Assembly (NCBI GenBank): GCA_965231145.1
Contig: OZ246420.1
Span: 240,001 to 272,000 of the forward strand
DNA from: Candidatus Saccharimonadota bacterium
GTDB lineage: Bacteria > Patescibacteriota > Gracilibacteria > Absconditabacterales > Absconditicoccaceae
Direction: 5' to 3'
DNA length: 32,000 bases
Shown piece after piece: positions 1 through 32,000 of this stretch (within the stretch, counting starts at the first letter, position 1; each line of letters opens with the position of its first letter). The notes under the pieces were generated by a model, which was given only the letters and a program-made list of their open reading frames with translations, was not told the DNA's origin and did no database searches. Both the position numbers and the translations under genes were made by a program.

Positions 1-69
1 GCTGGAAAGCAGAAAGGAAAATTGCTGTATGGATTAATGCGTGGGTTAAGAGATGGTTTTAGCCTGTAA
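1..69 (+). CDS. 3' end of an upstream gene (partial, 22 codons, ends TAA)
   Basis: Frame 1 is open from the window edge to TAA at 67-69 (AGKQKGKLLYGLMRGLRDGFSL*). It is too short to identify. Confidence 0.2.
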   Translation, partial: AGKQKGKLLYGLMRGLRDGFSL

Positions 70-77
70 TAGATGTC

Positions 78-887
78 ATGAGAGATCATAATCTGCAATT
101 GCCTGACTATGAGGAGCTTCAACATATTCTCGATAAAGAAGCAGTCAGAGAAGTAACCGTAGAAAAACATAGTCTACATTATGTTAATTTTTCTCCGATT
201 ATAGATTTCTGTACAGTAGTTGGTCTTTCTACAGACTACTTTACTCACCGACAAGAAAGAAAAGATTTGCAGGATCCACTTTTCTGGCAACAATTAAAAC
301 AATTGGAGTCTGATTGTCTCGATGCATTGTGAAATTATAGCTGACCTCAAGAAGTTCTTGATAGGCTCTGGGATTATCTCTCTGAGGAAGATGCTGTACA
401 AAAGGCTGATATGATCATGGTGTTTGGCGCGCCTTGAACATTGAGAATAGATAAGGCGATAGAACTCTATACTGCTGGATATGCAGAGAAAATATTACTC
501 ACATGAAAAGGACCGGTTCGAGGAACCGCAGAGATCTCCGAAGCAGAAGCATGGCACGCATATGCTCTAGAAAAAGGTGTTCCAGCAGAAGCTATGCTAC
601 TGGAGAAAAACTCGATCTCTATTCCTGACAATGTGAAGTCGAGCCTTAATATGCTTGATGCGTTGTATATGAATGTAAAATCTATGATTCTTGTAACGTC
701 GCCTTATGCGCTGAGAAGAACATATTCTTATATGCAGAAATTTCTCCATACAAAAGTCGCTGTGTACAGACTAGCGGCAGGTTCAAAGTATACGAAAGAA
801 AATTGGTATATGACCCCAGAAGGGCAGAAAGTAATTGTAAATGAGTATATCAAACTGAAAGTGAGTGAGCTGCTCAATACGGTCTAG
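78..887 (+). CDS. DUF218/YdcF-like (ElyC/SanA family) protein, 269 aa, 4 in-frame TGA read as Gly
   Basis: ORFs 78-332 and 594-887 share one frame and are separated only by TGA codons. The joined product shows the DUF218 pattern MIMVFGAPG..RIDKAIELYTAGYAEKILLTGKG..EAEAWHAYALEKGVP. Ends TAG. Confidence 0.7.
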
Positions 888-1271
888 CTATTCTACTTTC
901 TCAAACGTCAGAGAAAGCTGGAATGCTTTGTTCTTTAGTGGTATGCTCATCTCGATTCGTAATCCACCGTATTTTGAAGATCGTTCAAGAAGATTTTTAT
1001 TGAGTAGTGGCTCCTCATAGCACTCAGGAGAAAGTTTGTAGTCTACATTGAAGAACATGCATTTTACTCTGTCAAATCTTTCTACTTGTACAAATACCTG
1101 GCAGGGCACGTGTTCAGGAAATGTGTCCTCATCAACGAGCTTTAGTCGTCACTCTTTTTTCCATAGCAAAATATGATGGGGCTCAACTATAAACTCATCA
1201 CAGCTAAACATCATCTTTTCGGCTGCCTTCGAAGCATCCAGATCGTAGAGGACTTGGAGAAACATACTCAT
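888..1271 (-). CDS. hypothetical protein, 127 aa (1 TGA-Gly)
   Basis: ORF 888-1109 extends upstream through one TGA to ATG at 1269-1271. The length is a multiple of 3 and the gene ends TAG. I recognise no motif. Confidence 0.45.
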
Positions 1272-1273
1272 TC

Positions 1274-1316
1274 AATTACGAATTAATAATGACGAATTAC
1301 GAATGAAATAATGAAT
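1274..1316. repeat. tandem duplication of about 21 nt (AATTACGAAT-N-AATAATGA, two units)
   Basis: AATTACGAAT occurs at 1274-1283 and 1295-1304. AATAATGA occurs at 1285-1292 and 1307-1314. The repeat fills the gap between the BI-1 gene stop and the start of the 888-1271 gene. Confidence 0.5.
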
Positions 1317-2147: not shown

Positions 2148-2585
2148 CTATCTTTTTTTTATGGTCAGCTGTATATCGCCGCCATCAGTTGTTTTAAATA
2201 CCATAGGTTGGTACTCACCAACATCAGCTTTCTCGACTTTACGTTCTTTACGCTTGTCGATAGTGAATTTTTCTCCGCTCATGGTAGAGTTGAGGTTTCT
2301 TGTTGTGGTTGTAAGCGTCCCAGCCTTTCTGTTTAACTCAATAGTTAATGAGCTCTCTTCGAGATCATAACTTATGATAGTGGTACCATCGGTATTGGGA
2401 TTGTCCAGCGTATTTACTACCATTCGGTAGTCGCTGCTACGTGGAGCGCTGCTTTTCTTAGCGCTGCTTTTCTTGGCAGGAGAGGATTTTCCTTTGGCTT
2501 CCCCTCTGCATTGTGCCATCCCTTGATGGCTAGATCCTATCAGTAAGAGCACGGCAATGCTCAATACTATCCATGTTCGTCTCAT
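2148..2585 (-). CDS. small secreted hypothetical protein, 145 aa
   Basis: Intact ORF with N-terminal signal-peptide-like MRRTWIVLSIAVLLLIGSS and a Lys/Ser-rich linker. Ends TAG. Confidence 0.55.
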   Translation of the reverse strand: MRRTWIVLSIAVLLLIGSSHQGMAQCRGEAKGKSSPAKKSSAKKSSAPRSSDYRMVVNTLDNPNTDGTTIISYDLEESSLTIELNRKAGTLTTTTRNLNSTMSGEKFTIDKRKERKVEKADVGEYQPMVFKTTDGGDIQLTIKKR

Positions 2586-2708: not shown

Positions 2709-2784
2709 GGGTTTGTAGCTCAGTTGGTAGAGCAAGAGCCTCTTAAGCTCCTGGTCCGGGGTTCGAATCCCCGCAAACCCACCA
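2709..2784 (+). tRNA. tRNA-Lys (anticodon CTT), CCA encoded
   Basis: Cloverleaf read by eye. Acceptor GGGTTTG/CAAACCC, D-arm GCTC-AGTTGGTA-GAGC, anticodon loop CTCTTAA, T-arm CGGGG-TTCGAAT-CCCCG, then ACCA. Confidence 0.93.
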
Positions 2785-2841: not shown

Positions 2842-2913
2842 AGGGCCATAGCTCAGTGGTAGAGCGGGAGTCTCCAAAGCTCCGCGTCGGGAGTTCAATC
2901 CTCTCTGGCCCTG
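2842..2913 (+). tRNA. tRNA-Trp (anticodon CCA), no encoded CCA end
   Basis: Acceptor AGGGCCA/TGGCCCT, D-arm GCTC-AGTGGTA-GAGC, anticodon stem GGAGT/GCTCC with loop CTCCAAA, T-arm GGGAG-TTCAATC-CTCTC, discriminator G. Confidence 0.9.
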
Positions 2914-3647: not shown

Positions 3648-3675
3648 GTATTTATCTTTTTACTGGTTATTACGT

Positions 3676-4104
3676 ATGAAAAGATTTCACAAAGGGTGTT
3701 TCGGCACACTTATCGTTCGTCTCGTTATAGGAGCGGTATTTCTTTACCATGGTATCACTAAGATCCTTATGCCTGCTGCAGGTATGATGGACTTCGTAGG
3801 AGGAGCTGCAACAAATCTTGGGCTTACGTTCTTCTCAAATGAAACATGGTTCTGGATCGTAGCTATCGCTGAAACTGTTGGTGGGGCAATGCTCGTACTC
3901 GGTCTCTTCACTCGTTGGTTTGCTGCTATCCTTGCTATCGTTATGCTTTTCGCTCTCAATACAAAGGGATGGGGTATCAAAGTAGCAGAGCTCGACTACG
4001 TATTGTTTGGTATTCTTGTGTCTCTCATTTTCACTGGTGGAAAGAGATATAGTCTTGATGGTCTCATGTGTAAAGGTGAGTACCACAATGGTGAAACTAT
4101 GTAA
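3676..4104 (+). CDS. DoxX family membrane protein, 142 aa
   Basis: Intact ORF with four hydrophobic helices and the DoxX-like N-terminus LVRLVIGAVFLYHGITKIL. No TGA. Ends TAA. Confidence 0.75.
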   Translation: MKRFHKGCFGTLIVRLVIGAVFLYHGITKILMPAAGMMDFVGGAATNLGLTFFSNETWFWIVAIAETVGGAMLVLGLFTRWFAAILAIVMLFALNTKGWGIKVAELDYVLFGILVSLIFTGGKRYSLDGLMCKGEYHNGETM

Positions 4105-4123
4105 TTCATTTCACTGCATGAAA

Positions 4124-5867: not shown

Positions 5868-8020
<2,153 letters not shown>

Positions 8021-8067: not shown

Positions 8068-9681
8068 TTATTCTCCTGCTATTTGTACTTCGTTTATTTG
8101 CTGATCCACATTTCCATCATGGGTAATTCCTTTCATCACTTTCTTAAGCGGCTTGTAGCCAATAAGAAGCATCATTCCATTGACGATGAGTCATCGTATA
8201 ATCAATTGCGTATAATCATTGTATGCTATTGGACCTATATTATTTGTGTATCGCCATGCGCTTCATGCAATGAGCACGATGCTTCCCATCAGGATGGTGA
8301 AATATTTCCATGAAAAGATGAGTGAAACGCGCTTCCGCTTTGAGACAATTATTCAACCAAGTAGATAGAGTAGCTCCATAAGCATTTGGGTCACGATACC
8401 TCCAACGATAGCATATTTCGGTATGATGATCGCTCCGACGATCATTCCTATAATCACTCCGATTGCATTTACTTTGAGCAGATGATTATTCAAACCTGTC
8501 GATACAAACATAAAGTTATAAACTTGTTTGGCGAAGCTGAGGAGCATTGTCACTGCAAGCCATGGCAAGATGAAATCTGAGCCAAAGCCTCCCGCAATAA
8601 ACTCTGAAAGGAACTCTTTTCCGCTGACGAGGTAAATGATATTACTATCAAACAGCCGGAAGTTTGCAACGAAGACCATACCTATTCGCAGTACGAAGAG
8701 TAAGAGACTTCCGTAGCTTTTGCGCTTGAGTTCATCGCTATATGCAGTTACTTTGTGGACGATACTGTTTCAGAGTGAAGAAGGAACAATCAGTAATATT
8801 TCCATGAGTGCTGATGCGACAGCCCACATACCCACGTATGCAAAACCCTCAGCTGTTGGATAAAATATTCCCATAAGAATCATGACTCCAAGCGTATGCA
8901 GACTGCTGAGGCAGTATGCAAGTCAGTATTGCCAATTGTCTTTGATAACGTTCCAGGTGAACTTCCAGTCCGGTTTGAGACGGAGCTTGATATGCTTATT
9001 GCTTACTCTTCGTACGTACCGTCATTGCATGGCTGCGCTCGCAAGCACTGAGCCTATCATGAGGAGGAAAGCATTGATAGAATAGCTGCTTGCTACAGAG
9101 AAATCAGGATTTTTATAGAGATAGACGATAGCAACCAGTACAACGATCTGGATGATTCTCGCGAGTGAGAGTGCAATACTCACATGTTTCATCCCCCAGA
9201 AGAGCTGCAGCGGAAGCTGCAATATACCTGCGGCCATGAAGCTTGCTGAGAAGAGCATACCGAGCGGCAGTCCCCACATGAGATACGGATTGCTGGTATA
9301 TGCCGGTATGAAATATGCAACAATCAGTGCCGTCATATAGACAATGATAATTGTCACGTATCTCGACATCACAAACTTTCCATAGTAGTTCTCGAGCTCT
9401 GTTTTTGCTTCGCCGTCTTTTGGCATCTCATGTGTCTTCGCATCGAGATGCATCTTTTCTTTGAGCGATCCGAGCTTCTTGAGCGCTATGACATATAGAC
9501 CGAAGTCTGCAAAGGCAGACCATATGGCAAAGTATTTTAATATCGTTGAATAGTCTCCGTACCTGAGCGGTCAGAGATACGGCGTCATGAGTTTTACCAC
9601 CAAAAATCCGCCGATGGCGGAGATAATACGACCGAGAATTTGTCGGAATGCATCTTTCACTACTAACTTGTAACTACTCAT
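8068..9681 (-). CDS. MOP-superfamily oligosaccharide/polysaccharide flippase (Wzx/MurJ-like), 537 aa (7 TGA-Gly)
   Basis: I checked every codon from 8068 to 9681 and found no in-frame TAA or TAG. ORFs 8353-8679 and 9022-9453 lie in this frame. The product is polytopic and hydrophobic throughout, with N-terminus MSSYKLVVKDAFRQILGRIISAIGGFLVVKL. Confidence 0.65.
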
Positions 9682-11253: not shown

Positions 11254-11733
11254 TTACTTTAATTTCTCATGCGAGAGAATCTGTTTCCCATCTTCAGAGA
11301 AGTAAAACGTATACTCAAAATACTCGCCAGCAAACATTCTTGGCATCCGATGGATGTCATCTGCTCGCATCTTTTCATAGGGGATGTCAGTAATATTGAA
11401 CCACTGAGGAAGCAGCTCTTCGGTCTCATGAAAATTTCCTGTATAATTTTTTGTAATAAACACATGAACTTCCTGATTCCGTTCAGGCTTATTCTGATAG
11501 TAGAGTTTATTGATTCCTTGTAATGTAAATGCTTCTTCAGGAAGAGTAATTTCTGTTTCTTCCTGTAGTTCTCTTACAACCGCCTGGAGCATAGTCTCAT
11601 CTTCTTCTACCTTTCCACCAGCGCCATTTCGCTTTCCAAGCGATATTTCAAAACCAGAATTAGTTTTCTTCTTTGCGCAGAGGAGTACTTGTCACGCTGG
11701 ATTGAAGACATAGATCAAATTTGTCTGGATCAT
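11254..11733 (-). CDS. NUDIX hydrolase, MTH1/NUDT1-like (8-oxo-dGTPase type), 159 aa (1 TGA-Gly)
   Basis: The NUDIX box reads GAGGKVEEDETMLQAVVRELQEETEI. The C-terminal WFNITDIPYEKMRADDIHRMP resembles the MTH1 pattern. ORF 11254-11592 extends through one TGA to ATG at 11733. Confidence 0.85.
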
Positions 11734-11809: not shown

Positions 11810-12382
11810 TTAGTGGCTAGTATGAGAAATAACTTTCCCGTCATCTGTATGATAGAAATCTTCATTGAGCATTTCTCCTTTGAGCATCTTGGGGAGCCAT
11901 GTTCTGTCGCTTTCCCACATCTTTTCCCATGGTAAATCAGCTAGGTCAAAATATTTTATTTCTGCCATCTCATCACTATCTTTAAATCCACCTGCGTAGT
12001 TCATGAGCTTGTAGACATTGCACTCGTTGTCCCAAGCTTTCTTGGTTTCAAAATGAAAACGAACAACCCCGACAAATTCTAATTGTCTTTCTGATACGAT
12101 GATGCCAAATTCTTGCTGGAGTTCTCTGAGCGCACAATCGATGATGGTCTCCTGATGTTCTCTTTTCCCTCCCGCTGTATTTACTTTCTCCACTGAAACA
12201 TCAAAGCCAGAATCGCTTTTTTTCTTCACCGCTAAAAGCATTTCTCCTTCAGGATTGAACACATAGACGAGGGTCGTCTGTTTCATGAGAGGTTCTTTTT
12301 CTATGCTTCCTTCAGCTTGTATCGATGAGCTGTTTGCTGCTTCATCGAGCTGAGAACTATTGTTGCGAGAGACCGTATTCAT
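11810..12382 (-). CDS. NUDIX hydrolase, MTH1/NUDT1-like paralog, 190 aa (or 158 aa from ATG at 12286)
   Basis: NUDIX box GGKREHQETIIDCALRELQQEFGI and the tail LPWEKMWESDRTWLPKML. From the internal ATG at 12284-12286 it would match the length of the neighbouring paralog. Confidence 0.8.
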   Translation of the reverse strand: MNTVSRNNSSQLDEAANSSSIQAEGSIEKEPLMKQTTLVYVFNPEGEMLLAVKKKSDSGFDVSVEKVNTAGGKREHQETIIDCALRELQQEFGIIVSERQLEFVGVVRFHFETKKAWDNECNVYKLMNYAGGFKDSDEMAEIKYFDLADLPWEKMWESDRTWLPKMLKGEMLNEDFYHTDDGKVISHTSH

Positions 12383-12507: not shown

Positions 12508-14460
12508 CTATTTCGACTCTACTTTCTTTAGTTCATCGCGATACTCATCGAGCATTGTCTGAGTTAGAGTGTCAGCATTGTCTGGGTTTTTCATGACGCT
12601 TTCGAATTCTTCTTTCGTGAGATATTCTTTTTCATAGAGGACGGAGAAGAGTTTTTCCATGAGATCCTTATTTTTGGTGAGAATCTCTTTAGATTTTGCA
12701 TAGGCGTCAGCAACGAGTGCTTTCACCTTGCTGTCTATCATCTCTGCAGTTTTTTCTGAGTATGGTTTGTACATCTGATACTCGCTGCTTCCTTCTTTTG
12801 GAGCATATTGCAATGTTCCAAGCTCATCGTCCATACCATACTTTGTCATCATATCGTAAGCTATCTTTGTGACTCTTTCAAAGTCATTTGATGCACCAGT
12901 GGTAATATGTTCTTTTCCAAAGAAGATCTCTTCAGCAGCACGTCCACCGAGGAGTGAAACCATCTCGTCGAGGAACTTAGCTTTGCTGTATAAGTACTTA
13001 TCTTCCTGAGGCATCATCCATGTGACACCAAGAGCCATACCACGAGAGACGATAGAGATCTTCTCGACAGGGTCTGATTCCTTCAGATTAAATGCTGTTA
13101 CAGCATGTCCTAGTTCATGGTATGTCACTATCTTTTTTTCTTGTTCTCTGAGTGATTTAATTTTCTTTTCTGGTCACATAACGACCTTTTCAAGACCGTA
13201 GTCTAAGTCTTTATTTGTAATAGCGACTCTGTTTTCTTTCGCAGTCTTGAGCGCAGCTTCATTGAGTATATTTTCTATGTCAGCTCCGACAAATCCACTT
13301 GTCTTACGAGCAAGTGCATCGAGATCAACACTCTTGTCTATTTTCTTGTTCTTCAGATGATACTTGATAATCAATACTCTTTCTTCAAGCGTTGGACGAC
13401 TTACCATAACTTTACGATCGAATCTTCCTGAACGAAGGAGTGCAGGATCGAGTGTGTCTGGTCTGTTTGTTGCAGCGATAACAATGACGCGTGTTTCCTG
13501 TTCAAATCCGTCCATTTCTGTGAGAATCTGATTGAGTGTTTGTTCCTGTTCTTGATGACCTCCGGTAAATCCTGCGCCACGTCTTTTCCCGATAGCATCG
13601 ATCTCATCGATAAAGATGATAGATGGAGCAGCAGCTTTTGCTTTGGTGAAAAGCTCTCTTACTTTTGCAGCACCCATACCTACGAGCATTTCCATAAATT
13701 CAGAACCACTAGCAGAAAAGAATGGTACATTTGCTTCGCCTGCTACGGCTCTTGCGAGAAGTGTTTTACCACTACCAGGTTGTCCAAAGAGGAGTACACC
13801 TTTTGGTACACGAGCGCCAGCTTTTGAAAACTTGGTTGGATTTTTCAGGAACTCTACGATCTCGACAAGTTCTTCTTTTGCCTCGTCCATACCTGCCACA
13901 TCAGCAAATCTTGTTGTGCTTTCTTTTTTGCTTTTGAGCTTTCCTGCTTGGATATTAAATGGCAATCCACCTCCCTTTGGACTCATCATGCGGAAGAGGA
14001 AGATGGCTATGACGAGGAAGAAAAGCATAGGTACGATCGTTTCCATGAAGAGCTTTGACCATACATTTTGCTCTTCGAGAGAAGAGCTGATCGCCGTACT
14101 TCCGGTAAGGGAAATACCAAGATCTTTCAATGATGTCGTTGCAGGTTTCTGTGCTGAAAAAACATTATAATAGACTACTTTAACGTTGCTCTGCAGAGAC
14201 ATAAGCGGAACATTCCCTTCTTTATTTTCTTCCTGATATCCTTCGAGAAGCGTATCGTTGACTACTTTTACTTTGTCAAAGGAACCGCTTTGGTAGAGTG
14301 AAAGCCATGTTGTAAGATCCATAGATGTTTCTTTGTCTGTTTTTTCTATGATTTTTTCGCCTTTTTCATTGGTCGTGATTTCGTAATTAGTATTGATGAA
14401 ATATAATACTCCTGTTATCACTAGTGCAAATATAATAAACCAACGTAATCCCTTTTTCAT
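12508..14460 (-). CDS. ftsH: ATP-dependent zinc metalloprotease FtsH, 650 aa (1 TGA-Gly)
   Basis: Walker A GQPGSGKT, Walker [32 protein letters not shown] and zinc motif HELGH are all present. ORFs 13174-14460 and 12508-13128 share a frame. The junction reads VVM-G-PEKK, the conserved GPEKK. Confidence 0.95.
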
Positions 14461-14632
14461 GTGTCGACGACAAGCTTAGAACATAAAACCTAAAGAAACT
14501 TTAGGAGATTTACACTATAGGCAAATAGAGGGGGCATTGCAAGAATAGTATCTATAGATGCAGGATAGAATAGATGAGGCTAATATTCTCATGCATGGTT
14601 GATTTTTCGCGTATAATCACTATAGTATCAGG

Positions 14633-15235
14633 ATGAGTTATAATCCATATGACCACTACTTTAAACAAGCAAAGAAGTCCTGATATAAAGCCAGGAGCGC
14701 TTTTAAGTTGGAGGAAATAGACCAAAAATATAAGATTTTCGATAGAAATGTAAAAAGTGTTATGGATATCTGATGTTCGCCAGGGTCATGGATGCAATAT
14801 GCGCATGAACATTTGAAGAAAAATAATATCAAAAATCCAGTTATCATCGGATTTGATATTAAACCAGCGACAGTGGAAATGCCAGGCGTGCATTGGTATG
14901 TACAGGATATCCAAGACACGGAAGCCGTCAGGAAACTCATTGGAAATCATGGAGTTGAGAAGTTTGACGCCATTATCTCCGATATGGCGCCAAACACCAT
15001 TGGCTTCCGTAACATTGATGCGATGAGAAGCGTGGAGCTTCTTCGTACAACACTCCCACTCTATGAACAGTTTTTAAAAAACGGCTGAAAAGCCGTCATC
15101 AAGATATTTATGTGACCGTGATTTGAAGAGTTTCTCGCAGAATTTAAGGCGATCGTGGGAGCAAAAAATGTAAAAGTGTTTAAGCCAAGCGCATGTAGAA
15201 AGGAGAGCAAGGAGACGTATATTGTGAAGTTCTAA
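14633..15235 (+). CDS. rlmE: 23S rRNA 2'-O-ribose (U2552-type) methyltransferase RlmE/FtsJ, 200 aa (5 TGA-Gly)
   Basis: YFKQAKKSGYKARSAFKLEEID, the SAM motif DI-G-CSPGSW with TGA at 14771-14773, KNGGKAVIKIFMGPGF and KPSACRKESKETYIV. Ends TAA. Confidence 0.9.
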
Positions 15236-16146: not shown

Positions 16147-17619
16147 ATGAAAATAGGACTCGTCGGGGCTACCAACGTAGGTAAATCGACACTTTTCAAT
16201 AGACTGCTCGGAAGTTACCGCGCAATTGTAACTGATATCCATGGGACGACCAGGGAGCTTTTGCGCGATCGCTCGATATTACAGGAGCTTGAAGGAACAG
16301 AAATTATCGACAGCCCGGGATTGGACAACTTCGATGCGGAGATTCCTTACATCCAAAAAATCATTGATGATGCAGATATTCTGCTTTTCGTTATTGACGG
16401 AAGAAAGGGTATGACAGCTAAGGAGGAAAAGATCAATGAGATGATTTTAGTCAGTGGAAGAAAAGAGAAGACTATAGCTGTTATCAATAAGCTGGAAGGA
16501 AACTTCATAGAAAAGAAATATACGCTTGCCATGGCTGATTACTATGGACTAGGGTATACAGAAACTATCGGTATCTCTGCAAAGCATGGAGAAAACCTTG
16601 ATTCATTGCTCGACGAGATCCATGTCATAGCGAAGAAGTATAAGCTCAGAGACAAGAATGCAGAGCAGCTAGCAGCTAGTGATAACGAGATTAACATAGC
16701 TATTGTTGGGAAGCCAAATGCCGGAAAATCATCGCTTCTCAATCATCTTGCAAAAGAAAAAATTGCACATGTTGATGAAAAACCAGGAACCACGCTTGAC
16801 TACATCGTGACAGATATCACCATGGGTCAGCAAACGTTCAGATTGTATGATACCGCAGGTATCCGCCGCGGGGCTAAGGCGGCGCAACTGGAGAAGATCG
16901 CTTGGGAGAAGACCTTTAAGATGATCGAGTTTGTCAGACCAGTCGTGGTTATGATGATAGATATTACGGAGTCGATCACTCATATGGATATGAAGATTAT
17001 TGGTGATATGATTCGTCACAATGTGCCGATTATTCTCGTACTCAATAAGATCGACCTTGTTGAGAAGAAAGAGCTTGAGCAGAAGATGGCGCTGATTATG
17101 AAATATCTTGAGATGGCAAAATGGATTCCGATTATCCCGATCTCAGCGCAAACAGGGCAGGGAGTGCAAAGCTTATTCTCGTTCATTAAGAAGATCCAGA
17201 AGGAGATGACACAACGTATTACGACGTCTCAGCTCAATAAGGTGCTTGGTGAAGCGATGATCAAAAGTCCTCCACGTTTCCCGAAAAATAAGATCTGTAA
17301 AATGTACTATGCATCTCAAGTTTCAGGTAATCCTCCAAGATTTGTGCTGTTCATCAACTCGATGGATAAGACAAACTTTGCTTATACAAAGTGGGTGGAA
17401 AACGTGATCCGTCGTGCGTTTGGATTTATCGGAGTGCCTATTGTCATCGAGTTTAAAGAGAAAGACGATAAGCATGCATGGAATGATAAGTCACATAGAT
17501 CAGAGAGCAAAGATCCGAAAGCAGAATCAAATGATGAAAATGTAGGGACGCATTATAATGCGTCCGATATTGAAGAGTATGATGATAGCGAAGATGAAGA
17601 AGATAATGATGAAGAATAA
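16147..17619 (+). CDS. der: ribosome-biogenesis GTPase Der/EngA, 490 aa, with acidic C-terminal tail
   Basis: Two G domains (GATNVGKST..DSPG..NKLE and GKPNAGKSS..DTAG..NKID) are followed by a KH-like domain and a tail EEYDDSEDEEDNDEE. No TGA. Confidence 0.95.
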   Translation: MKIGLVGATNVGKSTLFNRLLGSYRAIVTDIHGTTRELLRDRSILQELEGTEIIDSPGLDNFDAEIPYIQKIIDDADILLFVIDGRKGMTAKEEKINEMILVSGRKEKTIAVINKLEGNFIEKKYTLAMADYYGLGYTETIGISAKHGENLDSLLDEIHVIAKKYKLRDKNAEQLAASDNEINIAIVGKPNAGKSSLLNHLAKEKIAHVDEKPGTTLDYIVTDITMGQQTFRLYDTAGIRRGAKAAQLEKIAWEKTFKMIEFVRPVVVMMIDITESITHMDMKIIGDMIRHNVPIILVLNKIDLVEKKELEQKMALIMKYLEMAKWIPIIPISAQTGQGVQSLFSFIKKIQKEMTQRITTSQLNKVLGEAMIKSPPRFPKNKICKMYYASQVSGNPPRFVLFINSMDKTNFAYTKWVENVIRRAFGFIGVPIVIEFKEKDDKHAWNDKSHRSESKDPKAESNDENVGTHYNASDIEEYDDSEDEEDNDEE

Positions 17620-17660: not shown

Positions 17661-17787
17661 CGTATGTAGTTCACGTAGGATTGTTCATAGAAGATTGTTT
17701 CTGTCCCGCAGTATATACACATATGCCAATTGCAATGCAGCAATGAATTTATATAGTGCGAATAGTTTTATTTGATTATTGTTGTCT

Positions 17788-18435
17788 ATGGAAAGAGAGT
17801 ATCAGAATTTTTACCAGATTTTTAGACGTGAAGGATTGGCTTTCGGTTGGAAGCACGCAAAGAAAGACTTATGGTTTTTCTTGCAGATATTTATTGTCCT
17901 TGGTATAGCAAATGCGATCCCTGCTATTATCAATCTTATCTATGGATGGCCGCAAGATACTGATAACTTTGGGGATCCTATCGCATTTATCTTGAGTCTT
18001 GTTTTTAGTTTTGGGCTCATAAAGATCTTTTTGCATTTCGTGCATCAGAAAGCTGTCCGTATAAAAGATCTCTGGAATCATGATCGAATTCGCTTTCTGT
18101 GGTGGATTGTTGCAAGAGTGATCTCAGGTGTCCTGATTGTTCTTGGTTGTATCCTCCTTCTTATCCCGGGTATCTATGTTGCGGCAAGACTCTACTTATT
18201 TGAGTACTTTGTCGTGGACCAGAATATGACTGCAATCGAAGCAATTAGTGCAAGCTGGGAGGTAACAAAAGGTCATGTGCGGGAGATTATTGGTATCTGG
18301 CTTTTGTCACTTGGCATTTTCATCCTCGCTATTATCCCATTTGGAGTAGGACTTCTCTGGGCTGTTCCTACGGTAAAACTTGCACAGGCAACGCTCTATA
18401 AGAAACTTTCAGGACATGCACATCACATCTCATAA
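17788..18435 (+). CDS. integral membrane protein (possibly DUF975-like), 215 aa
   Basis: Intact ORF (the track starts at TTG 17779; the first ATG is at 17788). It has multiple TM helices and no TGA. The family assignment is tentative. Confidence 0.55.
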   Translation: MEREYQNFYQIFRREGLAFGWKHAKKDLWFFLQIFIVLGIANAIPAIINLIYGWPQDTDNFGDPIAFILSLVFSFGLIKIFLHFVHQKAVRIKDLWNHDRIRFLWWIVARVISGVLIVLGCILLLIPGIYVAARLYLFEYFVVDQNMTAIEAISASWEVTKGHVREIIGIWLLSLGIFILAIIPFGVGLLWAVPTVKLAQATLYKKLSGHAHHIS

Positions 18436-20187: not shown

Positions 20188-21552
20188 TTACTCAGCTTTC
20201 TTCGCTTTAGCCTTTTTAGGCTTCTCTTCTGTTGTTTCATCTTTTTTCGCTTTTGTAGTAGTTTTCTTCGCAGGTTTCTTTTCTGTCGTGTCAGTCTCGC
20301 TATCTTCAGATGCTTTTACACTTTTTGCTTTCGGCTTTGCAGTACTTCCTGAAGCTAACTTAGCATAGAGCTTTTCTTCTGCATCAAGATGTTTATTCCA
20401 GTCGATATCATTGATCTCAAGAAGCTCTACAAGCTTTCTGAGGATGAAGAATTTCTCGAGTGATTGTCTTGCTGATGTTTCAATATCATCGTATACTTTC
20501 TTCGTTCCTTCTTCTCCGATCTTGTCAAAGTATTGCTTCATGCCAGCTTCACCACCCATGCGATCTCCAAGCTGTTTGATGCGAGCTCCCATTTCTTCTC
20601 TCAGCACTGTATGTGGAATGCTGACACTCATAGAACCTTTCACTTCGTCAATCAACTTTTCTACTCCCTGGTGGAGTGCGTTTTCACGTTTCTGTTGACT
20701 GAGTACCTCGTCAATCTTTTTCTGGAGAGATGCTTTGTCGGTAATCTCTTCACTCTGGAAAAGCTTCTTAAGAACTTCAGCATTATCTAAGTCAGGCATG
20801 ATAACGTTCTTAATATCTACGATAGTCGCAGATACATGTGCAGCCTTAAGTCCTTTCTTTGCTTCATCCTTTGGATGAAAGTGGAAAGTATGAGGAAGCT
20901 TCTTTTCATCGTATGCAAATTCAACAGTTGCATCTTTCTTTTGTCCCACAAACTCTTTTTTCAAAAGAGCAGATTCTTCATACTCTTCTTTTCCGAGGAA
21001 TACAGAACCTTTGTCGATTTCATTACCATCTTTGTCTTTCATCGAAAACTTAATTTTCGCAACGCTGTCTTCAGTTACTGTATCGGTATCTTGGTAGTCA
21101 GCATACTGGCGAGCGAGGTTGTTCAATGCAGTTGCTGCTTCTTCAGCAGTAGCAGTAGCGTTGATAGTCTCCATAGAGAGCGATTGCCGCTTTTTGTCTT
21201 TCACTTCTACTTCTGGATATACATCGAGTTTGAAAGTAATAGACCATCCGTTGGCATCCTTGTTGTTCTGGAGATCATAAGGTTGTCCGATAAACTGTAT
21301 TTTATCATGTTCTTTGATAACCTGCTGAAGAGTTTTGTTCATGACTTCCTCATACATAGCCATCTGCATGTATTCAGGCTTAATGTTTTTCTCAACTATA
21401 CTCAAAGGTACATGACCTTGTCTAAATCCTGCAAATGAAAAATCTTTCTGCGCGATAGCGAGGGCTCCTTTTTTCATCTCTGCCTCGGTAGCGGCGTCTA
21501 CCATGACTTTTATTTCATAATTGGCATTTCCTTTAATGAGTTCGTATTTCAT
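20188..21552 (-). CDS. tig: trigger factor, 454 aa, with a Lys-rich C-terminal tail of about 60 aa
   Basis: The ribosome-binding signature GFRQGHVP sits in the N-domain and the overall layout is that of trigger factor. The tail reads KPKAKSVKAS..KKPAKKTTTKAKKDETTEEKPKKAKAKKAE. No TGA. Ends TAA. Confidence 0.9.
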   Translation of the reverse strand: MKYELIKGNANYEIKVMVDAATEAEMKKGALAIAQKDFSFAGFRQGHVPLSIVEKNIKPEYMQMAMYEEVMNKTLQQVIKEHDKIQFIGQPYDLQNNKDANGWSITFKLDVYPEVEVKDKKRQSLSMETINATATAEEAATALNNLARQYADYQDTDTVTEDSVAKIKFSMKDKDGNEIDKGSVFLGKEEYEESALLKKEFVGQKKDATVEFAYDEKKLPHTFHFHPKDEAKKGLKAAHVSATIVDIKNVIMPDLDNAEVLKKLFQSEEITDKASLQKKIDEVLSQQKRENALHQGVEKLIDEVKGSMSVSIPHTVLREEMGARIKQLGDRMGGEAGMKQYFDKIGEEGTKKVYDDIETSARQSLEKFFILRKLVELLEINDIDWNKHLDAEEKLYAKLASGSTAKPKAKSVKASEDSETDTTEKKPAKKTTTKAKKDETTEEKPKKAKAKKAE

Positions 21553-22396: not shown

Positions 22397-22467
22397 ATTT
22401 TTTGATAGAAAATGATAAATAATATTTAATAATGCATAATAATTATATTAAAAAGCTTTATTTGTGC

Positions 22468-22500
22468 AATATTTATTGTCGAAATTCGCCGACAAATATT
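22468..22500. promoter_or_regulatory. imperfect inverted repeat (candidate operator) in a divergent promoter region
   Basis: AATATTT-AT-TGTCG (22468-22481) pairs with CGACAAATATT (22490-22500). It lies between the TrmB-like gene and the methyltransferase gene. Confidence 0.35.
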
Positions 22501-22569
22501 CGTACTATTGACTTACAATGCAAATTACTTCCGCTATGATTTCTGCGCTTTATATTATATGAAACTTAT

Positions 22570-23265
22570 ATGCAGACAGATTATAATCTCATCGCTAAGG
22601 AGTTCTCGGGTTATAAAAGTACTGAAAAAACAGAAAATATTGGATATGGCAAGCTTGTTGAGCTTGTCGGAGAATGCTCACGCAAGAAAATACTTGACTA
22701 TGGGTGTGGAAGCGGTGTTATTGCTGCAGTCTTATCTGCAAAATGAGCTGATCTTATGGGTGTCGATATTTCATCCAATCTTATTAAAATAGCTCAAGAC
22801 AATGTGCCAGGAGTGCCTTTTGAGCTCATTGACTCGAAAGCTCCCTTTGCAAATATAAAAAAGGAGCTTTTTGATGTGATTACTATGAATTATGTCCTCT
22901 GTGTTCTTCCTAAAGAAGAGGAGATTCAAAAGATTATTTCGGGAGCGCATACTTCGTTACACAAATGATGAAAACTTTATATACAAAACGCTAACTGGGA
23001 TAAAGCTAATGGAGCTGATTTTATGTCTTATAAGCTTCATTTTAAAGATAATTTGCAAGATGGCGATAAAATTTTTGTAACACTAAAGCTTGATCATCCG
23101 CTGGAAATTGAAGACTATTTTTTCTCCCAAGAAACGTACAAGAAGTGGCTCTATGAAATATGATTTTCTCATGTTGTCGTGCATGAACTGTATGGAAAAA
23201 AAGAAGATGGACGGGAAGAGGAATTCCGTACATCTCCTTGTTATATTATAGAAGCTATTAAATAA
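22570..23265 (+). CDS. class I SAM-dependent methyltransferase, 231 aa (4 TGA-Gly, including a TGATGA pair)
   Basis: Motif I is ILDYGCGSGVIAAVLSAKGADLMGVDIS. The post-I/II region is DVITMNYVL. LHK-GG-KLYI is encoded by TGA TGA at 22966-22971. Ends TAA. Confidence 0.8.
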
Positions 23266-25111: not shown

Positions 25112-25208
25112 CGAGACACTAAATACAACGAAAAACTAAAAATCTCAAAATCTTCGCAATTGCGTATAAAAATGAAAACATCCTTTATATGAAGAAAACC
25201 AACGCACG

Positions 25209-25583
25209 GTGCATCACCACTTTCTTTATTATGCTGTTGTATGACGTACAGATACGGATGCCGAAAAAGCAACACAGACAATCTTGGAAGAATTTCTTTC
25301 TCGTCTGGTTGCTTTTTTAGATATGCATGATACGAGTGATAAATATATTACGTATGATGATGTCCATCACGTGCGAATAGGGAGAGTAGTAGATAGTCTT
25401 TCTCATGCTATCTTTCATTATCATCTGGCTACGGGTATTATACAGATAGATATGTATAGCAACTATCCTTATGAGAAGGAGCACATTAAAGCTTTCTTTG
25501 GAGAGTTCTGGCAGGCGAAAAAGCTAGATTTCCTTTGTATCGATAAACATGGGCGAAACAAGAGGCTAGGATGATGTCTATAG
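25209..25583 (+). CDS. S-adenosylmethionine decarboxylase-like (pyruvoyl-enzyme fold) small protein, paralog 1, about 124 aa; start uncertain
   Basis: VHHHFLYYAVVGR..ILEEFLSRLVAFL..RVVDSLSHAIFHYH..IQIDMYSNYPYE aligns with the downstream paralog and with the SpeH-type pattern (ESH..H..iD.f.C). There is no in-frame ATG, so GTG at 25209 is the best start. It reads through TGA to TAG at 25581-25583. Confidence 0.45.
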
Positions 25584-25723: not shown

Positions 25724-26119
25724 ATGAACAACACATTAGTGCATCATCATCTACTGTTCTATGCAACAGTAGGAAGGCAAGATCTGACGCCTGAGTCAGG
25801 TGCGGAAACTATACTAGTACAGTTCTTAGATGGGCTAGTGAGTTTCTTACAGATGAAAAAACTTATAGAGCCGATTGTGCTCTATTATGAAAGTAATGAT
25901 GCCTATACAGGCATTGTCGTTATTGCAACTTCGCACATTGCATTTCACTATTTCCGAAAAGAGCAGTTTATCCAAATGGATATCTACTCATGTAAGCCGT
26001 ATGACAAAGAAGCAACACTAACCTACTGTCTATCTTTTTGGAAAGGCAAGCTAGTTGATAGTGTCTTCATGGACAGGCTTACACAAACCGGACAGATCGC
26101 AGTGTCTACAACATCTTAA
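25724..26119 (+). CDS. S-adenosylmethionine decarboxylase-like (pyruvoyl-enzyme fold) small protein, paralog 2, 131 aa
   Basis: LVHHHLLFYATVG..GIVVIATSHIAFHYFRKEQFIQMDIYSCKPYD resembles the class-1 AdoMetDC (SpeH) core GvvviSESHltiHTwPE..iDvftCg. Intact ORF ending TAA. Confidence 0.5.
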   Translation: MNNTLVHHHLLFYATVGRQDLTPESGAETILVQFLDGLVSFLQMKKLIEPIVLYYESNDAYTGIVVIATSHIAFHYFRKEQFIQMDIYSCKPYDKEATLTYCLSFWKGKLVDSVFMDRLTQTGQIAVSTTS

Positions 26120-26223: not shown

Positions 26224-26667
26224 TTAATAGTGATATTCTCTTCACTCCATAATACTTTTTGCTCTATAGACTTGTTCGAGAACAGTGAGTTTTGCTAGTC
26301 CATGGGGCAGGGTTGCTTTGCCAAAGGCTATTTTTGTATGGATGAATGCATCCAATTTTGGTTCATCAAAACCGTAGGGGCCTCAGATGATGAAAGTAAT
26401 ATTATTGTGTGTTTCTGCTATTTTCACAATCTCTTCCGTGGAAACTTGTTTTCCATCCTTCGAGAGAAGGATTTTATAATCGGTATTTTTTGATAGTTTT
26501 TCTATGATTTTATCAGTTTCCTTGGAAATTATCTGGTCGCGGGTACCGTTTTTTTCTGGTTTTATGGTGATGATTTCTAGGTCTTTCCCTAGTCTTTTGA
26601 GATATTCGTCGATAGCAGAGGCAAAGTGCTTATCACTATCGGATATGCATAAAACCTTTATTTTCAT
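26224..26667 (-). CDS. rlmH: 23S rRNA (pseudouridine1915-N3)-methyltransferase RlmH (SPOUT), 147 aa (2 TGA-Gly)
   Basis: MKIKVLCISDSDKHFASAIDEYLKRL.. continues through TGA as FII-G-PYGFDE..IAFGKATLPHGLAKLTVLEQVYRAKSIME-G-REYHY*. Ends TAA. Confidence 0.9.
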
Positions 26668-26783: not shown

Positions 26784-28289
26784 ATGAAATTCTACGATAA
26801 AGTAAAAGTAACCTTTCAGTCAGGTAAAGGGTGAGACGGAGTAGTGTCTGCACGCCGTGAATCAGGAGTTCCTTTCGGGGGGCCAGCCGGAGGAAATGGA
26901 GGAAAATGAGGTTCAGTGATACTTCGTGCGTCGAAAGATGTAAATACACTGATCGATTTTAGGTATACAAAAATTTTTGCTGCGAACAAAGGTGAGCCGG
27001 GAAGAACAAAAGAACAATATGGAAAAGATGCGGAAGATCTGACATTGCTGGTACCGGTAGGAACGATCATTCGTGACATTAAGTCAGAGCATGTATTGCA
27101 TCAGTTCCTTCTCGACGGTGATCAGTTTAAGATCTGTAAGGGTGGACAAGGAGGTATTTGAAATATGCATTTTAAAAACGCTTCAAATCAATATCCGCAG
27201 TTCGCGCTTCTTGGAGAGCCGGGCGAGGCAAGAGAGGTAGAGCTTGAGCTTCAGCTTCTTGGAGATGTCGCGCTTATCGGAACGCCGAGTGTGGGGAAGT
27301 CGTCGATCATCAATGCTATCAGCAATGTGAAAGCAAAGGTTGCGGACTATCCCTTTACGACGCTTATCCCAAATCTTGGTTCGGTGAAGCATCGTGATTA
27401 TACGTTCAATGTTGTGGATGTGCCAGGGCTTATCGAAGGAGCGAGCGAAGGAAAAGGTCTTGGAAATGATTTTTTGCGTCATATTTTGAAGGCATCTATT
27501 TTTTCATTTGTTATTGATGCGTCTCGTTATGAGCAGGGTATAGAGGAGTTTGGTAAACTCTTTGATGAAATTCTTCACTACATGAAGGAGAAATTTATGC
27601 AAAGTCGTGACTTTGGAAGCGAAATTACTAATATTCATTTTAAGCTCAGAAAGGACAACGAAAGACTTTTCCTCGAAGTGCTCGCAACGATCAATGATGA
27701 ACAAAAGGTGCTCATGGAAAAGATGGTAGTTATCATTCTTAACAAACAGGATATTCTGGATGACGATGAAGTGGTTGGCGAGTATACAACACACTTCCTG
27801 CAACACGCGCAAATGTACTTGAAACACACCTTTGGCGTGTTTCTGGAAACACAAGAGATTCCGGTGTTTATGATCTCTGCTATGACGCAAAATGGTGTCA
27901 CTAGGTGGCTTGATCTTATCCAACATTACCTTCAGTACGATAGAGAAGCGAGTTCATTGCTCTTATTTGACGTAGTGCCAGTAGAAAAGAAGCCTGTAGG
28001 CGATATCAAAGATGCTACAGCTGAGGTTCTACCATGGCTTATTGAACGTGGGTATGTCGAAGAACTCGATGCAAAATATGCAAAAGTGTGGCAAGTTGCC
28101 GATGATGAGTTCTGTCGTCTTGCATACATGCTTCCATGGGGAAATGATGAAGCAGAGATGTGGTTCTGGAATGTGATGAGCAAAAAACGCTTCGTGACGA
28201 AACTGGAAACTGCGGGTCTCGTAAAGTGAGATATCATCAAGATTTCATCCCTCTACAATGGAGTGGAGGACAAGTATATTAGATACTAA
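26784..28289 (+). CDS. obg: GTPase Obg/CgtA, 501 aa (4 TGA-Gly)
   Basis: The Obg-fold Gly repeats are SGKG-G-DGVVSARRE, GGNGGK-G-GSVIL and KGGQGGI-G-N. The G domain has GTPSVGKSS, DVPGL, NKQD and SAM. The C-terminal OCT-like part reads through TGA (AGLVK-G-DIIKI) to TAA. Confidence 0.95.
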
Positions 28290-28936: not shown

Positions 28937-28961
28937 GTTCCTCTTTTTTTATACAAAAAAA

Positions 28962-28991
28962 CCATCCGCGCGCTTCATGGGATGGATTTTT
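28962..28991 (+). terminator. rho-independent terminator after the 28460-28936 gene
   Basis: CCATCC/GGATGG stem (28962-28967 / 28980-28985) followed by ATTTTT. Confidence 0.55.
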
Positions 28992-29089
28992 GAAGGAAGA
29001 AAGGTAGTTGTCTATACTACATCCATATTGGTAAGCTGTTCACATAACTACTTACATGTCAGTTCTTATAATATGTCGCTGTGCTTGTC

Positions 29090-29540
29090 CTGATCTGATC
29101 GCTCAGATTGACTTGCGCATCGGATGAGTTGTTAAGGCCCATGCAATGGTATACATTTGATAGTCGTGCTAAAAAAGTAGTTAGACTTCTCTAGTAGAGG
29201 CATTATCACGTAGTATACGAACCACCTACGTTTTAAGGGTAGTGGGTATCTAGTTTTTAAGGCTAGATTTGAGGCATTTATCTACAGTGAAGTAGATAAC
29301 GTGTAGCATGATTTCTATCTTTCTCCCTAAGAGAGACACTGTCGTGTAGAGCCAAGCTCGCAGATTCGAGTGAGGGGTTTGTGTCCTCAGAAATCGAAAG
29401 TGGTCTGATATACCCTTGGTACAGACGATAGACTACTCTAAAGTACGTGTAGAAGGTTTTATGTATATCATATACATAGCAGTGCCTGTCTTAGGAAGAA
29501 AAATATGTGTATTTTTCTTCTTCTCGTGGAGACAGAGAGA
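29090..29540. other. stop-dense, hairpin-rich non-coding segment; candidate structured RNA or long leader
   Basis: No frame stays open beyond about 50 codons even with TGA as sense. Hairpins lie at 29093-29108, 29248-29268, 29278-29299 (perfect 8 bp), 29460-29478 and 29495-29520 (11 bp), with an outer stem 29486-29491/29530-29535. Confidence 0.3.
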
Positions 29541-29755
29541 CATGTGAAAGAACTTATTGCGTATTTATTATATACCTGAGTGTCGGATTTGTCAAATTTT
29601 TACGCTTCTCATTTTATAGTAGTCATACTGCTTATACACATTATATCATTTTTTCTTGTTTTTTGGCTTTTAATAGCCTGTTTGCTTGCTATAAAATCTT
29701 GATATGGCAGCATTTTTTTTTATTACTTAGTTCTTAGTATATAACACAATGGAAT

Positions 29756-32000
29756 ATGAAGATAAGTAAGCCATCAACTTTCTTCGGTCGGGCATCATTA
29801 GGTGTTTACTGTTTTCAAATATTTTTTGCGCTACTCATTACTGTCATGCCGAGTATGACAGAAAAGGCATATGCAGCCGTACCGTCGCCTATGTACTTAC
29901 TAAAGTTTAATTATGACTTCTATGATTATTCTCGTAACGAAAGGCATGGTGTTCCTGGTGCGACAGCAACTATTATTACTGATCCTACTCGCGGTAAGGT
30001 GTTAAATCTCAATGGTACTGCCAATACAAGTGTAGTGACGATACAGAACACTCTGCCAGCAAGCTATACAAAAGCTGCGTGGGTAAAATTTGGTACAACC
30101 AATAATGGCTCATATAGTATTTTATCAAATGGAACAACACCTTCTTCAAGTCCAGATTTTTTTTGGGTCTCCACTGGCACATATGGATGATCAGCTATCC
30201 TGGGTCTCAAGGCTGGTCCTATAACGGCTGGTAATAATGCAGTGTGGAGTACAGGAGCATTTCCTACAAATACTTGGACGCATGTCGCAGTTACTTTCGA
30301 TGGTTCTACTAAACAGTACAGACTCTATCAAAGTGGTGTGTTAGTCGGCCTGGCTACCGGTACTTCTTCGCATGCAAGTACTGCTCAGGCTATTGGAGCT
30401 TATGCGACTACTCCTTCTGCAAATACCTTTAATTGGACAGGACAGTTAGACGATGTTCAGTTGTGGGATAGTGTATTAACAGAGGCTCAGATAGGAGAGG
30501 TTATGAATCAAAATAATGGCGATGGTGTCACTCCTGCTGTTCCTGATTTCCCTACATCACTAGAAGCTTTTGCATACGATGCCAATGCCGTTTATCTTAC
30601 TTGGACTGGGGTGGGAGCTACACCAGTAGTAACAGACTATCAGATAGAGTATAAGATAAACACAGGTTCTACTTGGAACGTATTTTCTGATTCGGTGAGT
30701 ACAAGTACGACAGGGCTTGTGACGTGATTGATCAACAATCTTGTCTATGATTTCAGAGTGTCGGCTATCAATGCTAGCGGAACGTGACTTCCAAGCACTG
30801 TAGTGTCGTGAACTGCAGTACCCTTACCGGAGCCACAATTTCTTCTTCGTTTTGAAGACACATATGACGATGTTTCGTCTCATGCAAATCACGGTACTGC
30901 TACAGGAGCAATAGCAATAGTTACTGATGGAATCCGTGGCAAGGTAGCTCGTTTTATTGGTTCTATAGGTAATTATGTGACTGTTAATGTTCCCTTGGGA
31001 ACGACAGGATTTACCAAGGCGGCATGGATATATATTCCAGTTGGTACAACTATGAGTGCTCGTAATATTATCTCGAATAGCCCGTATGGAGGAAGTAACT
31101 CCAGCTTTCTTTGGGTAGATAGTTCAAAATTACAAGTTGGTCATTTCTCAGGAGCCGCGGCTCCGATCTTTGCTGCTGACCCTGCTAATATGACTTCGGG
31201 ATCCTGGGCGCATGTTGCTGTAACTTATCAGCCAGCATTGAAAAAATATATGCTTTATAGAAATGGAGCGCTTGTTGCCAGTGGCTATTCTATTCAAAAT
31301 CCAAATCCAAGTACAGGAACTATTATCTGAGCATATAATACAACCGCTGTTACATTTTCTGGATTTATGGATGATGTTGAAATGTGGAATAGCGCATTAA
31401 CTCCTGCTCAGATTCAATTAGTCTATGAGGGTAATACGTGAGTTCCGGTAGGCGTACCAGTTGCTCCTGCTAATTTTACTGGTACTACAGCAAGTAGTAA
31501 TAAAGCTACGTTAATCTGGTCGTGAGTGTCAGCTATTTTACCGGTAACTGACTATCAAATAGAGTATAAAATCAGTACCTGATCAACGTGGACGGTCTTT
31601 TCTGATGGAGTAAATACAGGTACAAGTGTCGTTGTTACAGGTCTGACGACCAATCTCTCATATGATTTTAGAGTGGCAGCGGTCAATTCTGCTGGTACTG
31701 GAGCAGTGACAAATGTTGTATCTCTCTCGCCAATTGTTGTTTCTGTGCCTCAGCCTCAATTTCTCCTGGGATTTGAAGGAAATTATGAAGATATGTCTAT
31801 CAATAGAAACAATGGAATAGCGACATGAACGCTTCCCATTATTACCGATGGCACTCGTGGGAAAGTAGTCAATATCAATGGTGTTGTAGGTAATTATGTT
31901 TGATTAAATGCCTCTCTCAATGTTTCGGGATTTACCAAAGCTGCATGGGTATATGTGGTGCCTGGTACGAATGTGGCTGCGCGTAATATATTGTCCAATG
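29756..32000 (+). CDS. giant secreted/surface protein with repeated LamG-like (Laminin_G_3) + fibronectin type III modules, 5' partial (at least 748 codons, about 10 TGA-Gly)
   Basis: ORFs 29756-30190, 30242-30727 and 30977-31330 share one frame and are joined by TGA. There is an N-terminal signal/TM (GVYCFQIFFALLITVMP). LamG_3 hallmarks are WTHVAVTFDG..YRLYQSG and LDDVQLWDSVLTEAQI. The Fn3 hallmark is VTDYQIEYKI..GL..YDFRVSAINASGTG. The module period is about 910 nt and the frame is still open at the window end. Confidence 0.85.

Follow-up and report, generated by a model that had tools for sequence, protein, structure and literature searches.

We propose that a 32,000-nucleotide stretch of bacterial DNA (contig OZ246420.1, positions 240,001 to 272,000; hereafter the window) is written in a genetic code in which three codons depart from their standard meaning, with UGA read as glycine and both CGA and CGG read as tryptophan. 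We give this reading, in a Patescibacteria bacterium that is most likely a member of the Absconditabacteria, a probability of about 0.92. It would leave UAA and UAG as the sole stop codons and CGU, CGC, AGA and AGG as the only codons for arginine. The codon meanings rest on alignments with homologs and on the replacement of one codon by another between relatives. An original prediction for the window had UGA as glycine, not stop or tryptophan, and assigned the whole to NCBI translation table 25; the first part stands, whereas the full code does not, since CGA and CGG behave as tryptophan codons.

Gene interruption by TGA

With the three standard stops, non-overlapping open reading frames (ORFs) of at least 80 amino acids occupy 0.69 of the window at a median length of 133 amino acids, and when TGA is taken as sense these values rise to 0.91 and 226 amino acids. 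This comparison of ORF lengths between code readings had been suggested with the original prediction and bears it out. Taking TAG as sense (coverage merely 0.78, median 145 amino acids) or TAA as sense (0.82, 139 amino acids) gained little, and both were rejected. Domains in Pfam also continue across the interruptions when TGA is kept as X: FtsJ is matched over 1-177 of 181 positions with five TGA codons inside the matched stretch, His_Phos_1 over 1-186 of 194 with six, GTP1_OBG over 2-155 of 155 with three and DUF218 over 1-132 of 133, while prolyl-tRNA synthetase (ProRS) and FtsH are matched at full length. Together, the continuity of these domains and the gain in ORF length establish that the interruption of genes by TGA alone is genuine and far beyond chance.

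Per-gene statistics were taken from a curated list of 32 genes, which make 85% of the window coding, and not from a greedy set of longest ORFs. In-frame TGA occurs 91 times in this list (1.0% of codons and 15% of glycine codons) and is found in 24 of the 32 genes; thus the earlier statement that genes are broken by TGA is right, although the fraction is 75% rather than two thirds. CGA and CGG together account for 42 codons (30 and 12, respectively), or 28% of tryptophan codons, in 21 genes, and 29 of the 32 genes carry TGA or CGA/CGG. Of the 31 complete genes, 21 finish with TAA and 10 with TAG, as had been claimed for all reconstructed coding sequences; however, such endings follow from the way the ORFs are built, and the informative part is that gene ends match the C-termini of homologs. 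ProRS (...FARAY) and RlmH (...EYHY) indeed finish at the same residue as their homologs of known structure.

An absence of any recoding, with the locus explained by decaying pseudogenes, sequencing or assembly error, selenocysteine, or programmed readthrough at TGA, would also produce genes that look broken under the standard code. Against this, TGA alone, and never TAA or TAG, cuts the frames, which are free of frameshifts; the 91 sites are spread over 24 genes, and essential genes (ProRS, FtsH and Obg) are among those hit. Selenocysteine could not account for anything like so many sites, and in relatives at 70-82% identity the TGA positions are either kept or swapped with GGN. Furthermore, the same sequence was assembled independently from three sequencing runs, ERR4405439, ERR4405440 and ERR4405441: a 35.7 kb Logan contig of ERR4405440 is identical to window positions 6147-20770 (14,624 bases), and the assemblies of the other two runs hold parts of the window. 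We therefore give an absence of recoding practically no weight.

UGA as a glycine codon

For each TGA that could be aligned to a solved structure we read by hand, from the printed alignments, the residue opposite it in the best aligned PDB hit. Glycine was found at 21 of 27 sites (binomial p = 4.5e-19 against a glycine background of 7.5%) and tryptophan at none, which would have p = 3.5e-11 if UGA were tryptophan. By gene, the top hit has glycine at all aligned TGA codons of Obg (3/3), RlmE (5/5), FtsH (1/1) and RlmH (2/2), at most of those of ProRS (3/4), the methyltransferase (3/4) and the histidine phosphatase (4/6), and at neither of the two in Flavodoxin_2 (0/2). The Obg codons 17, 42 and 126 are glycine in the B. 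subtilis, T. thermophilus and E. coli proteins. Aligning TGA columns to homologs, a check raised at the outset, hence shows a clear preference for glycine; the claim that each break falls at an invariant glycine was overstated, the rest being at variable positions.

Codon exchange between orthologs leads to the same meaning. We compared 19 window genes with one relative (L001) and 17 with another (L002), at approximately 75% identity, with TGA treated as X in both genomes. Opposite the TGA codons of the window (92 cells) the relatives have GGN 51 times, TGA 18 times, codons for serine, asparagine, threonine, alanine or others 23 times and TGG never, and in the reverse direction the TGA codons of the relatives face GGN 40 times, TGA 18 times and, again, TGG never. 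Using substitution frequencies estimated from the remaining codons of the same alignments, the maximum-likelihood meaning of TGA is glycine, by 129 nats over serine and 225 nats over tryptophan. In a broader set of 120 ProRS sequences, 101 of them distant, columns 170 and 358, where the window has TGA, hold glycine in 92/101 and 89/101 of the distant homologs, and the leftover tryptophans in these columns are TGA codons of related lineages that were translated by table 4.

The window also contains its own controls. GGN lies opposite TGA in 5 of 13 cells when two tandem paralogs are compared, and in 6 of 7 for repeat A against repeat B in the last gene. The GGA/TGA pair of the paralogs and the GGT/TGA pair of the repeats, which the original prediction had offered as internal controls, are present among these cells, and all nine codons that it cited have the sequence and peptide context it gave, including the TGA at the complement of 24427-24429 and the GGA at the complement of 23492-23494 (codon 197 of the paralogs).

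The reading of UGA as tryptophan, as in Mycoplasma, Spiroplasma and some endosymbionts (NCBI table 4), would suit a small genome of lowish GC content, and some public pipelines have translated relatives in this way, so that one ProRS record (P0001) has SMWW where the window has TGA-TGG. It is opposed by the complete lack of TGA/TGG exchange in the ortholog cells, by the likelihood deficit relative to glycine and by the lack of tryptophan at the structurally aligned sites, and we consider its chance negligible. The lone tRNA-Trp seen has the anticodon CCA; this tRNA, predicted earlier at 2842-2913, was found by both ARAGORN and Rfam. Taken alone it is a weak argument against UGA being tryptophan, since a CCA tRNA is kept beside the UCA one in organisms with UGA as tryptophan too. 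The assignment of UGA to glycine is, on sequence grounds, strongly supported by solved structures, by codon exchange between orthologs and by the paralogs and repeats within the window, and we regard it as secure.

CGA and CGG as tryptophan codons

The first sign of a second change was that 32% of the TGG cells of the window lie opposite nominal arginine codons in the ortholog comparison. Among well-aligned orthologs, the CGA and CGG codons of the window have TGG as their partner in 12 cells and CGA/CGG in 17, and in no cell CGT, CGC, AGA or AGG, whereas the latter four codons show 202 pairings among themselves and none with TGG or CGA/CGG (Fisher p = 7e-20). CGA accounts for ten of the exchanges with TGG and has none with true arginine codons. 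CGG accounts for two, both with L001 (codon 180 of the DUF975 protein and codon 122 of trigger factor), and at two further sites the relatives have CGA in its place. Seen from the relatives, 30 CGA/CGG codons lie opposite TGG in the window, nine of them CGG. When the likelihood was applied codon by codon, leaving out one codon at a time, CGA was assigned to tryptophan by 51 nats and TGA to glycine, and 59 of 61 testable codons kept their standard meaning; for CGG the informative cells are too few for this test.

Solved structures provide a further, independent view of these codons, since tryptophan is found opposite 4 of the 8 CGA/CGG sites that can be aligned to PDB entries and arginine opposite none (p = 2e-6). 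In the MTH1-like Nudix hydrolase, CGA-35 (11629-11631), CGA-123 (11365-11367) and CGG-129 (11347-11349) fall on three conserved tryptophans of human and zebrafish MTH1, within the motifs GKWNGFGGKV and MWADDILWFP; the CGG at codon 85 of the same gene is in a variable loop. In the S-adenosylmethionine decarboxylase (AdoMetDC)-like gene, CGA-78 aligns with the tryptophan that is invariant in the motif SHxxIHTWPE, as seen in the enzymes of Aquifex (2iii) and Thermotoga (1tlu).

ProRS allows the same question to be asked across six genomes of the clade, a set that includes the DNA of four added relatives at 70-82% identity. The 12 columns in which CGA or CGG occurs contain TGG 35 times, CGA/CGG 33 times, a tyrosine codon three times, a glycine codon once and a true arginine codon never, and CGA and CGG swap freely between the genomes. 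By comparison, the 18 invariant-arginine columns of ProRS are encoded in the window by CGT (9), AGA (8) and CGC (1), with no CGA or CGG. At the four invariant-tryptophan columns, arginine appears in 2-9 of the 19 translations of close relatives taken from databases. From these alignments CGA as a tryptophan codon is secure, and CGG as a tryptophan codon is well supported, on a smaller sample.

Evidence against the three-codon reading

Several observations weigh against the code as we propose it. Six of the 27 structurally aligned TGA sites are not glycine in the top PDB hit, having alanine (ProRS-235), serine, arginine, histidine, glutamate and asparagine instead, at variable positions; about a fifth of the TGA codons lie at variable, mostly small or polar, positions. 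The four CGA/CGG sites that do not align with tryptophan fall on phenylalanine, lysine, glutamate/leucine and aspartate, again at variable positions. One CGG of the window pairs with AGG in L001, in an alignment that is merely 33% identical, and support for CGG is in general thinner than that for CGA, consisting of the two TGG exchanges, one tryptophan in the PDB comparison and several CGG/CGA exchanges. The GC content of the window, 0.395, is just above the 0.26-0.38 of clades with reassigned CGA/CGG (related loci: 0.35-0.42), a comparison made on 32 kb of genome with a range that is a correlate of the code variant and not its definition. Finally, neither a tRNA with the anticodon UCA, UCG or CCG nor anything on prfB was found in the window and some 150 kb of flanks and related loci.

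Exactly NCBI table 25, with UGA as glycine, CGA and CGG as arginine and the rest standard, would draw on the full support for its UGA assignment and on the CGG/AGG pairing. It could also appeal to ProRS CGG-351, which adjoins a conserved arginine of the anticodon-binding domain such that an indel of one residue would align the two. However, each of the six clade genomes has CGA or CGG at codon 351 and none has AGA or CGT there, the invariant-arginine columns of the same enzyme never use CGA or CGG, and the AGG pairing stands alone in its poorly conserved alignment. Set against twelve exchanges with TGG and none with true arginine codons, and four invariant tryptophans and no arginine in the structures, table 25 as it stands is very improbable.

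An ambiguous or transitional code, in which CGA and/or CGG are part tryptophan and part arginine, or in which CGA has switched and CGG is still arginine, is perhaps a shade less probable again. It gains from the small number of informative CGG sites, from the several CGA/CGG codons at variable positions and from the finding that some Gracilibacteria read CGG as tryptophan and others as arginine, suggesting a complicated history (PMC8629427). It does not sit well with Nudix CGG-129 on an invariant tryptophan, with the window CGG codons that are TGG in L001 and the relatives' CGG codons opposite window TGG, or with the free swapping of CGA and CGG, both of which a UCG tRNA would read.

Decoding machinery and lineage

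No tRNA with the anticodon UCA, UCG or CCG turned up in a search of the window, of 5.4 kb on its upstream and 2.2 kb on its downstream side, and of eight related loci; the tRNAs present there are Lys(CUU), Trp(CCA) and Met(CAU), while a Peribacteria locus has Arg(UCG), Cys and Ser. In the window itself an Rfam scan returned two tRNAs and nothing further. Since neither a decoding tRNA nor prfB lies in the approximately 150 kb covered, the mechanism is taken from the literature. Loss of release factor 2 together with a tRNA-Gly(UCA) would allow UGA to be read as glycine, tRNAs UCG and CCG with tryptophan identity (G73, no A20) would read CGA and CGG, and a tRNA-Arg(GCG) would read CGU and CGC (PMC8629427). 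The UCG tRNA would wobble onto both CGA and CGG, which may explain why the two codons change meaning together. More generally, bacteria of the candidate phyla radiation (CPR) are without tRNA-Arg(ACG) and use a GCG tRNA for CGU/CGC and UCG/CCG tRNAs for CGA/CGG, and this division would let CGA and CGG switch as a pair (PMC8629427).

The tRNA-Trp(CCA) of the window has A1:U72, G73 and a seven-nucleotide anticodon loop, CUCCAAA. Its anticodon stem, read from the sequence, has five base pairs (G27-C43, G28-C42, A29-U41, G30-C40 and U31-G39), as compared with the tRNA-Trp(CCA) with a 4-bp anticodon stem that organisms reading UGA as glycine are expected to be without (PMC13092985). Minimum free energy folding of this tRNA did not reproduce the cloverleaf, and the stem was taken from the cloverleaf supported by ARAGORN and Rfam.

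To find relatives and the identical contig we used the Der GTPase as a probe, because the gene contains no TGA, CGA or CGG and its sequence is therefore independent of the code. The nearest genomes in the GTDB species set are JAGOPC010000003.1 (76% identity for Der) and JAUIDC010000001.1 (74%), the next match being a Peribacteria metagenome-assembled genome at 42%. Relatives at 70-82% identity share the code of the window. The source is most likely a member of the Patescibacteria (CPR) and, within these, of the Absconditabacteria (SR1), a placement that rests on the code and on Patescibacteria records rather than on a tree. The earlier placement with CPR bacteria of the Gracilibacteria/Absconditabacteria type is consistent with this evidence, and the use of both CGA and CGG as tryptophan points more specifically to the Absconditabacteria (PMC8629427).

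It is also conceivable, though we think it unlikely, that the lineage falls beyond, or on the outermost margin of, the clade of Absconditabacteria described with CGA and CGG as tryptophan. This idea is based on the GC content of about 0.40, on the 28% of tryptophan codons that are CGA/CGG and on a CGG usage about twice the reported ceiling. If true, it would mean a wider phylogenetic spread, or a second origin, of the double sense-codon capture; alternatively, it would mean an exceptionally late stage, with the captured codons spreading once more in a genome that has ceased to be AT-poor.

Comparison with known codes

The reading of UGA as glycine together with CGA and CGG as tryptophan has been described in the Absconditabacteria (Shulgina and Eddy, 2021, eLife, PMC8629427; restated in PMC13092985). 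In that clade the prevailing codon for arginine is AGA, CGA is usually used fewer than 37 times per 10,000 codons and CGG usually fewer than 7 times (all but one species), and the GC content is 0.26-0.38 (PMC8629427). The window has all three reassignments, belongs to an uncultivated CPR lineage whose relatives share its code, and uses AGA as its commonest arginine codon (per 10,000 codons: AGA 140, CGT 89, CGC 44 and AGG 31). CGA occurs 33 times per 10,000 codons in the window, a frequency that falls inside the published range and exceeds that of CGG (13). The CGG figure differs in lying slightly above the reported values, and so does the GC content. The window matches the published Absconditabacteria code in all codon-level features and is thus a further example of it, not a new system.

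Three other codes resemble it in part. NCBI table 25 (SR1/Gracilibacteria), which goes back to Campbell 2013 and Rinke 2013 as cited in PMC8629427, shares UGA as glycine and UAA/UAG as stops but keeps CGA and CGG as arginine. NCBI table 4 (Mycoplasmatales/Entomoplasmatales and some insect endosymbionts) likewise has UGA as a sense codon in small genomes of lowish GC content, but there UGA is tryptophan, and no tRNA-Trp(UCA) was seen in the window. In Anaerococcus and the RFN20 Bacilli (Onthovivens) an arginine codon of the CGN box has been captured by tryptophan, as in the window (PMC8629427; PMC13092985). However, CGG alone has changed in these bacteria, and CGA remains arginine because the UCG tRNA was lost and CGA is read by ICG, whereas in the window both codons have changed and UGA has too.

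Consequences for annotation

The code itself is already published, and the finding is correct and of practical use in annotation. It adds one more rare bacterial reassignment of sense codons, stacked on that of a stop codon, and opens no new question. As CGA and CGG are tryptophan here and arginine in table 25, translation by that table puts arginine for tryptophan at 42 codons in 21 of the 32 genes, and these errors reach catalytic or ligand-stacking tryptophans of the Nudix hydrolase and AdoMetDC. Table 4 would place tryptophan at 91 glycine positions, and the standard code fragments most genes on the contig. The expectation that any standard-code annotation would be badly wrong is borne out on the identical contig, where Logan's public gene calls cut ProRS into four pieces and FtsH into two. 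Such mistranslations are passed on when profiles are built, structures predicted and functions inferred for this CPR group.

Public translations from the clade are wrong in three ways: as fragments under the standard code, with tryptophan at TGA from table 4 (the SMWW of P0001), and with arginine at invariant-tryptophan columns, an example of the last being PGRKY for PGWKY in ProRS of the relatives (set P0001-P0010). In recoded genomes ORF length by itself also over-calls genes. With TGA as sense, the greedy choice of longest ORFs gave two spurious antisense frames, 3670-4119(-) and 11986-12444(+), opposite the true genes for DoxX and a second Nudix protein, respectively, as both a codon-usage score and the gene calls of Logan show.

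Genes and features of the window

Table 1. Features of the window discussed in the text, with their recoded codons. Positions are those of the window; aa, amino acids; AdoMet and SAM, S-adenosylmethionine.
Feature	Position	Strand	Remarks
tRNA-Lys(CUU)	2709..2784	+	ARAGORN, Rfam
tRNA-Trp(CCA)	2842..2913	+	ARAGORN, Rfam; reads UGG only
DoxX	3676..4104	+	Logan gene calls, codon-usage score
Histidine phosphatase	5868..6491	+	6 TGA (4 align to Gly in PhoE), 1 CGA
ProRS	6512..8020	+	TGA codons 170 (7019-7021), 235 (7214-7216), 358 (7583-7585), 383 (7658-7660)
ProRS CGG codon 351	7562-7564	+	CGA/CGG in all six clade genomes, never AGA or CGT
Polysaccharide-biosynthesis/flippase-type membrane protein	8068..9681	-	7 TGA, 8 CGA/CGG; CGA codons 13 and 332 are TGG in L001
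MTH1-like Nudix hydrolase	11254..11733	-	1 TGA, 4 CGA/CGG
Second Nudix	11810..12382	-	Adjoins first Nudix gene; no recoded codons
FtsH	12508..14460	-	One TGA (complement of 13174-13176), Gly in T. maritima FtsH, Leu in T. thermophilus
RlmE/FtsJ methyltransferase	14558..15235	+	6 TGA, including SAM-motif Gly 14771-14773
Der/EngA GTPase	16147..17619	+	No TGA, no CGA/CGG
DUF975 membrane protein	17743..18435	+	CGA-115 (18085-18087) is TGG in L001 and L002
DUF975 CGG codon 180	18280-18282	+	TGG in L001, CGG in L002
Trigger factor	20188..21552	-	No TGA; CGG-122 (21187-21189) is TGG in L001, CGG in L002
Class I SAM methyltransferase	22432..23265	+	5 TGA, including TGA TGA pair 22966-22971 (PDB: Ser/Asp then Gly)
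Two tandem paralogs	23267-24082, 24202-25017	-	47% identical, 271 aa each, 13 TGA cells
AdoMet decarboxylase-like	25724..26119	+	CGA-78 (25955-25957) on invariant Trp of SHxxIHTWPE
RlmH	26224..26667	-	2 TGA, both Gly in T. maritima, B. subtilis and S. aureus RlmH
Obg GTPase	26784..28289	+	TGA codons 17 (26832-26834), 42 (26907-26909), 126 (27159-27161), 484
LamG/Fn3-like repeat protein, partial	29756..32000, off window end	+	GGT 30665-30667 vs TGA 31580-31582

The tRNA-Lys(CUU)/tRNA-Trp(CCA) pair is kept in a relative (L015, 3367-3630; 82% identity), where it adjoins Bax1-I and Flavodoxin_2 genes as it does in the window. A record lookup for the protein encoded at 2148-2585(-) gave no match. 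ProRS is 63-65% identical to the enzymes of many Bacteroidota, which is unusually high for a CPR protein compared with an unrelated phylum; horizontal transfer, or a ProRS subtype common to both, may lie behind it. The two tandem paralogs (23267-25017), labelled wHTH proteins in the original prediction, have no Pfam match, and both copies are kept in L001 and L002.

Upstream of the AdoMetDC-like gene lies a stop-to-stop frame of 138 amino acids (25170-25583). The short ORF within it (25323-25583) aligns to one and the same ORF of L001 and L002 as does the AdoMetDC-like gene, and is perhaps a further AdoMetDC-like copy that has diverged.

The repeat protein that runs off the end of the window continues in flanking sequence (L007 and L008) as a large, secreted-looking protein with repeats of approximately 305 amino acids that are 42-53% identical. 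Each repeat consists of a Laminin_G_3/LamG-like part (Pfam, on Logan fragments) followed by an Fn3-like segment. At the other end, about 1.4-2.9 kb upstream of the window start (L009, 16793-18283), there is an ORF of 496 amino acids with faint matches to type IV secretion system coupling protein and to TrwB-type ATPases, and it is followed by a Pyr_redox_2 gene.

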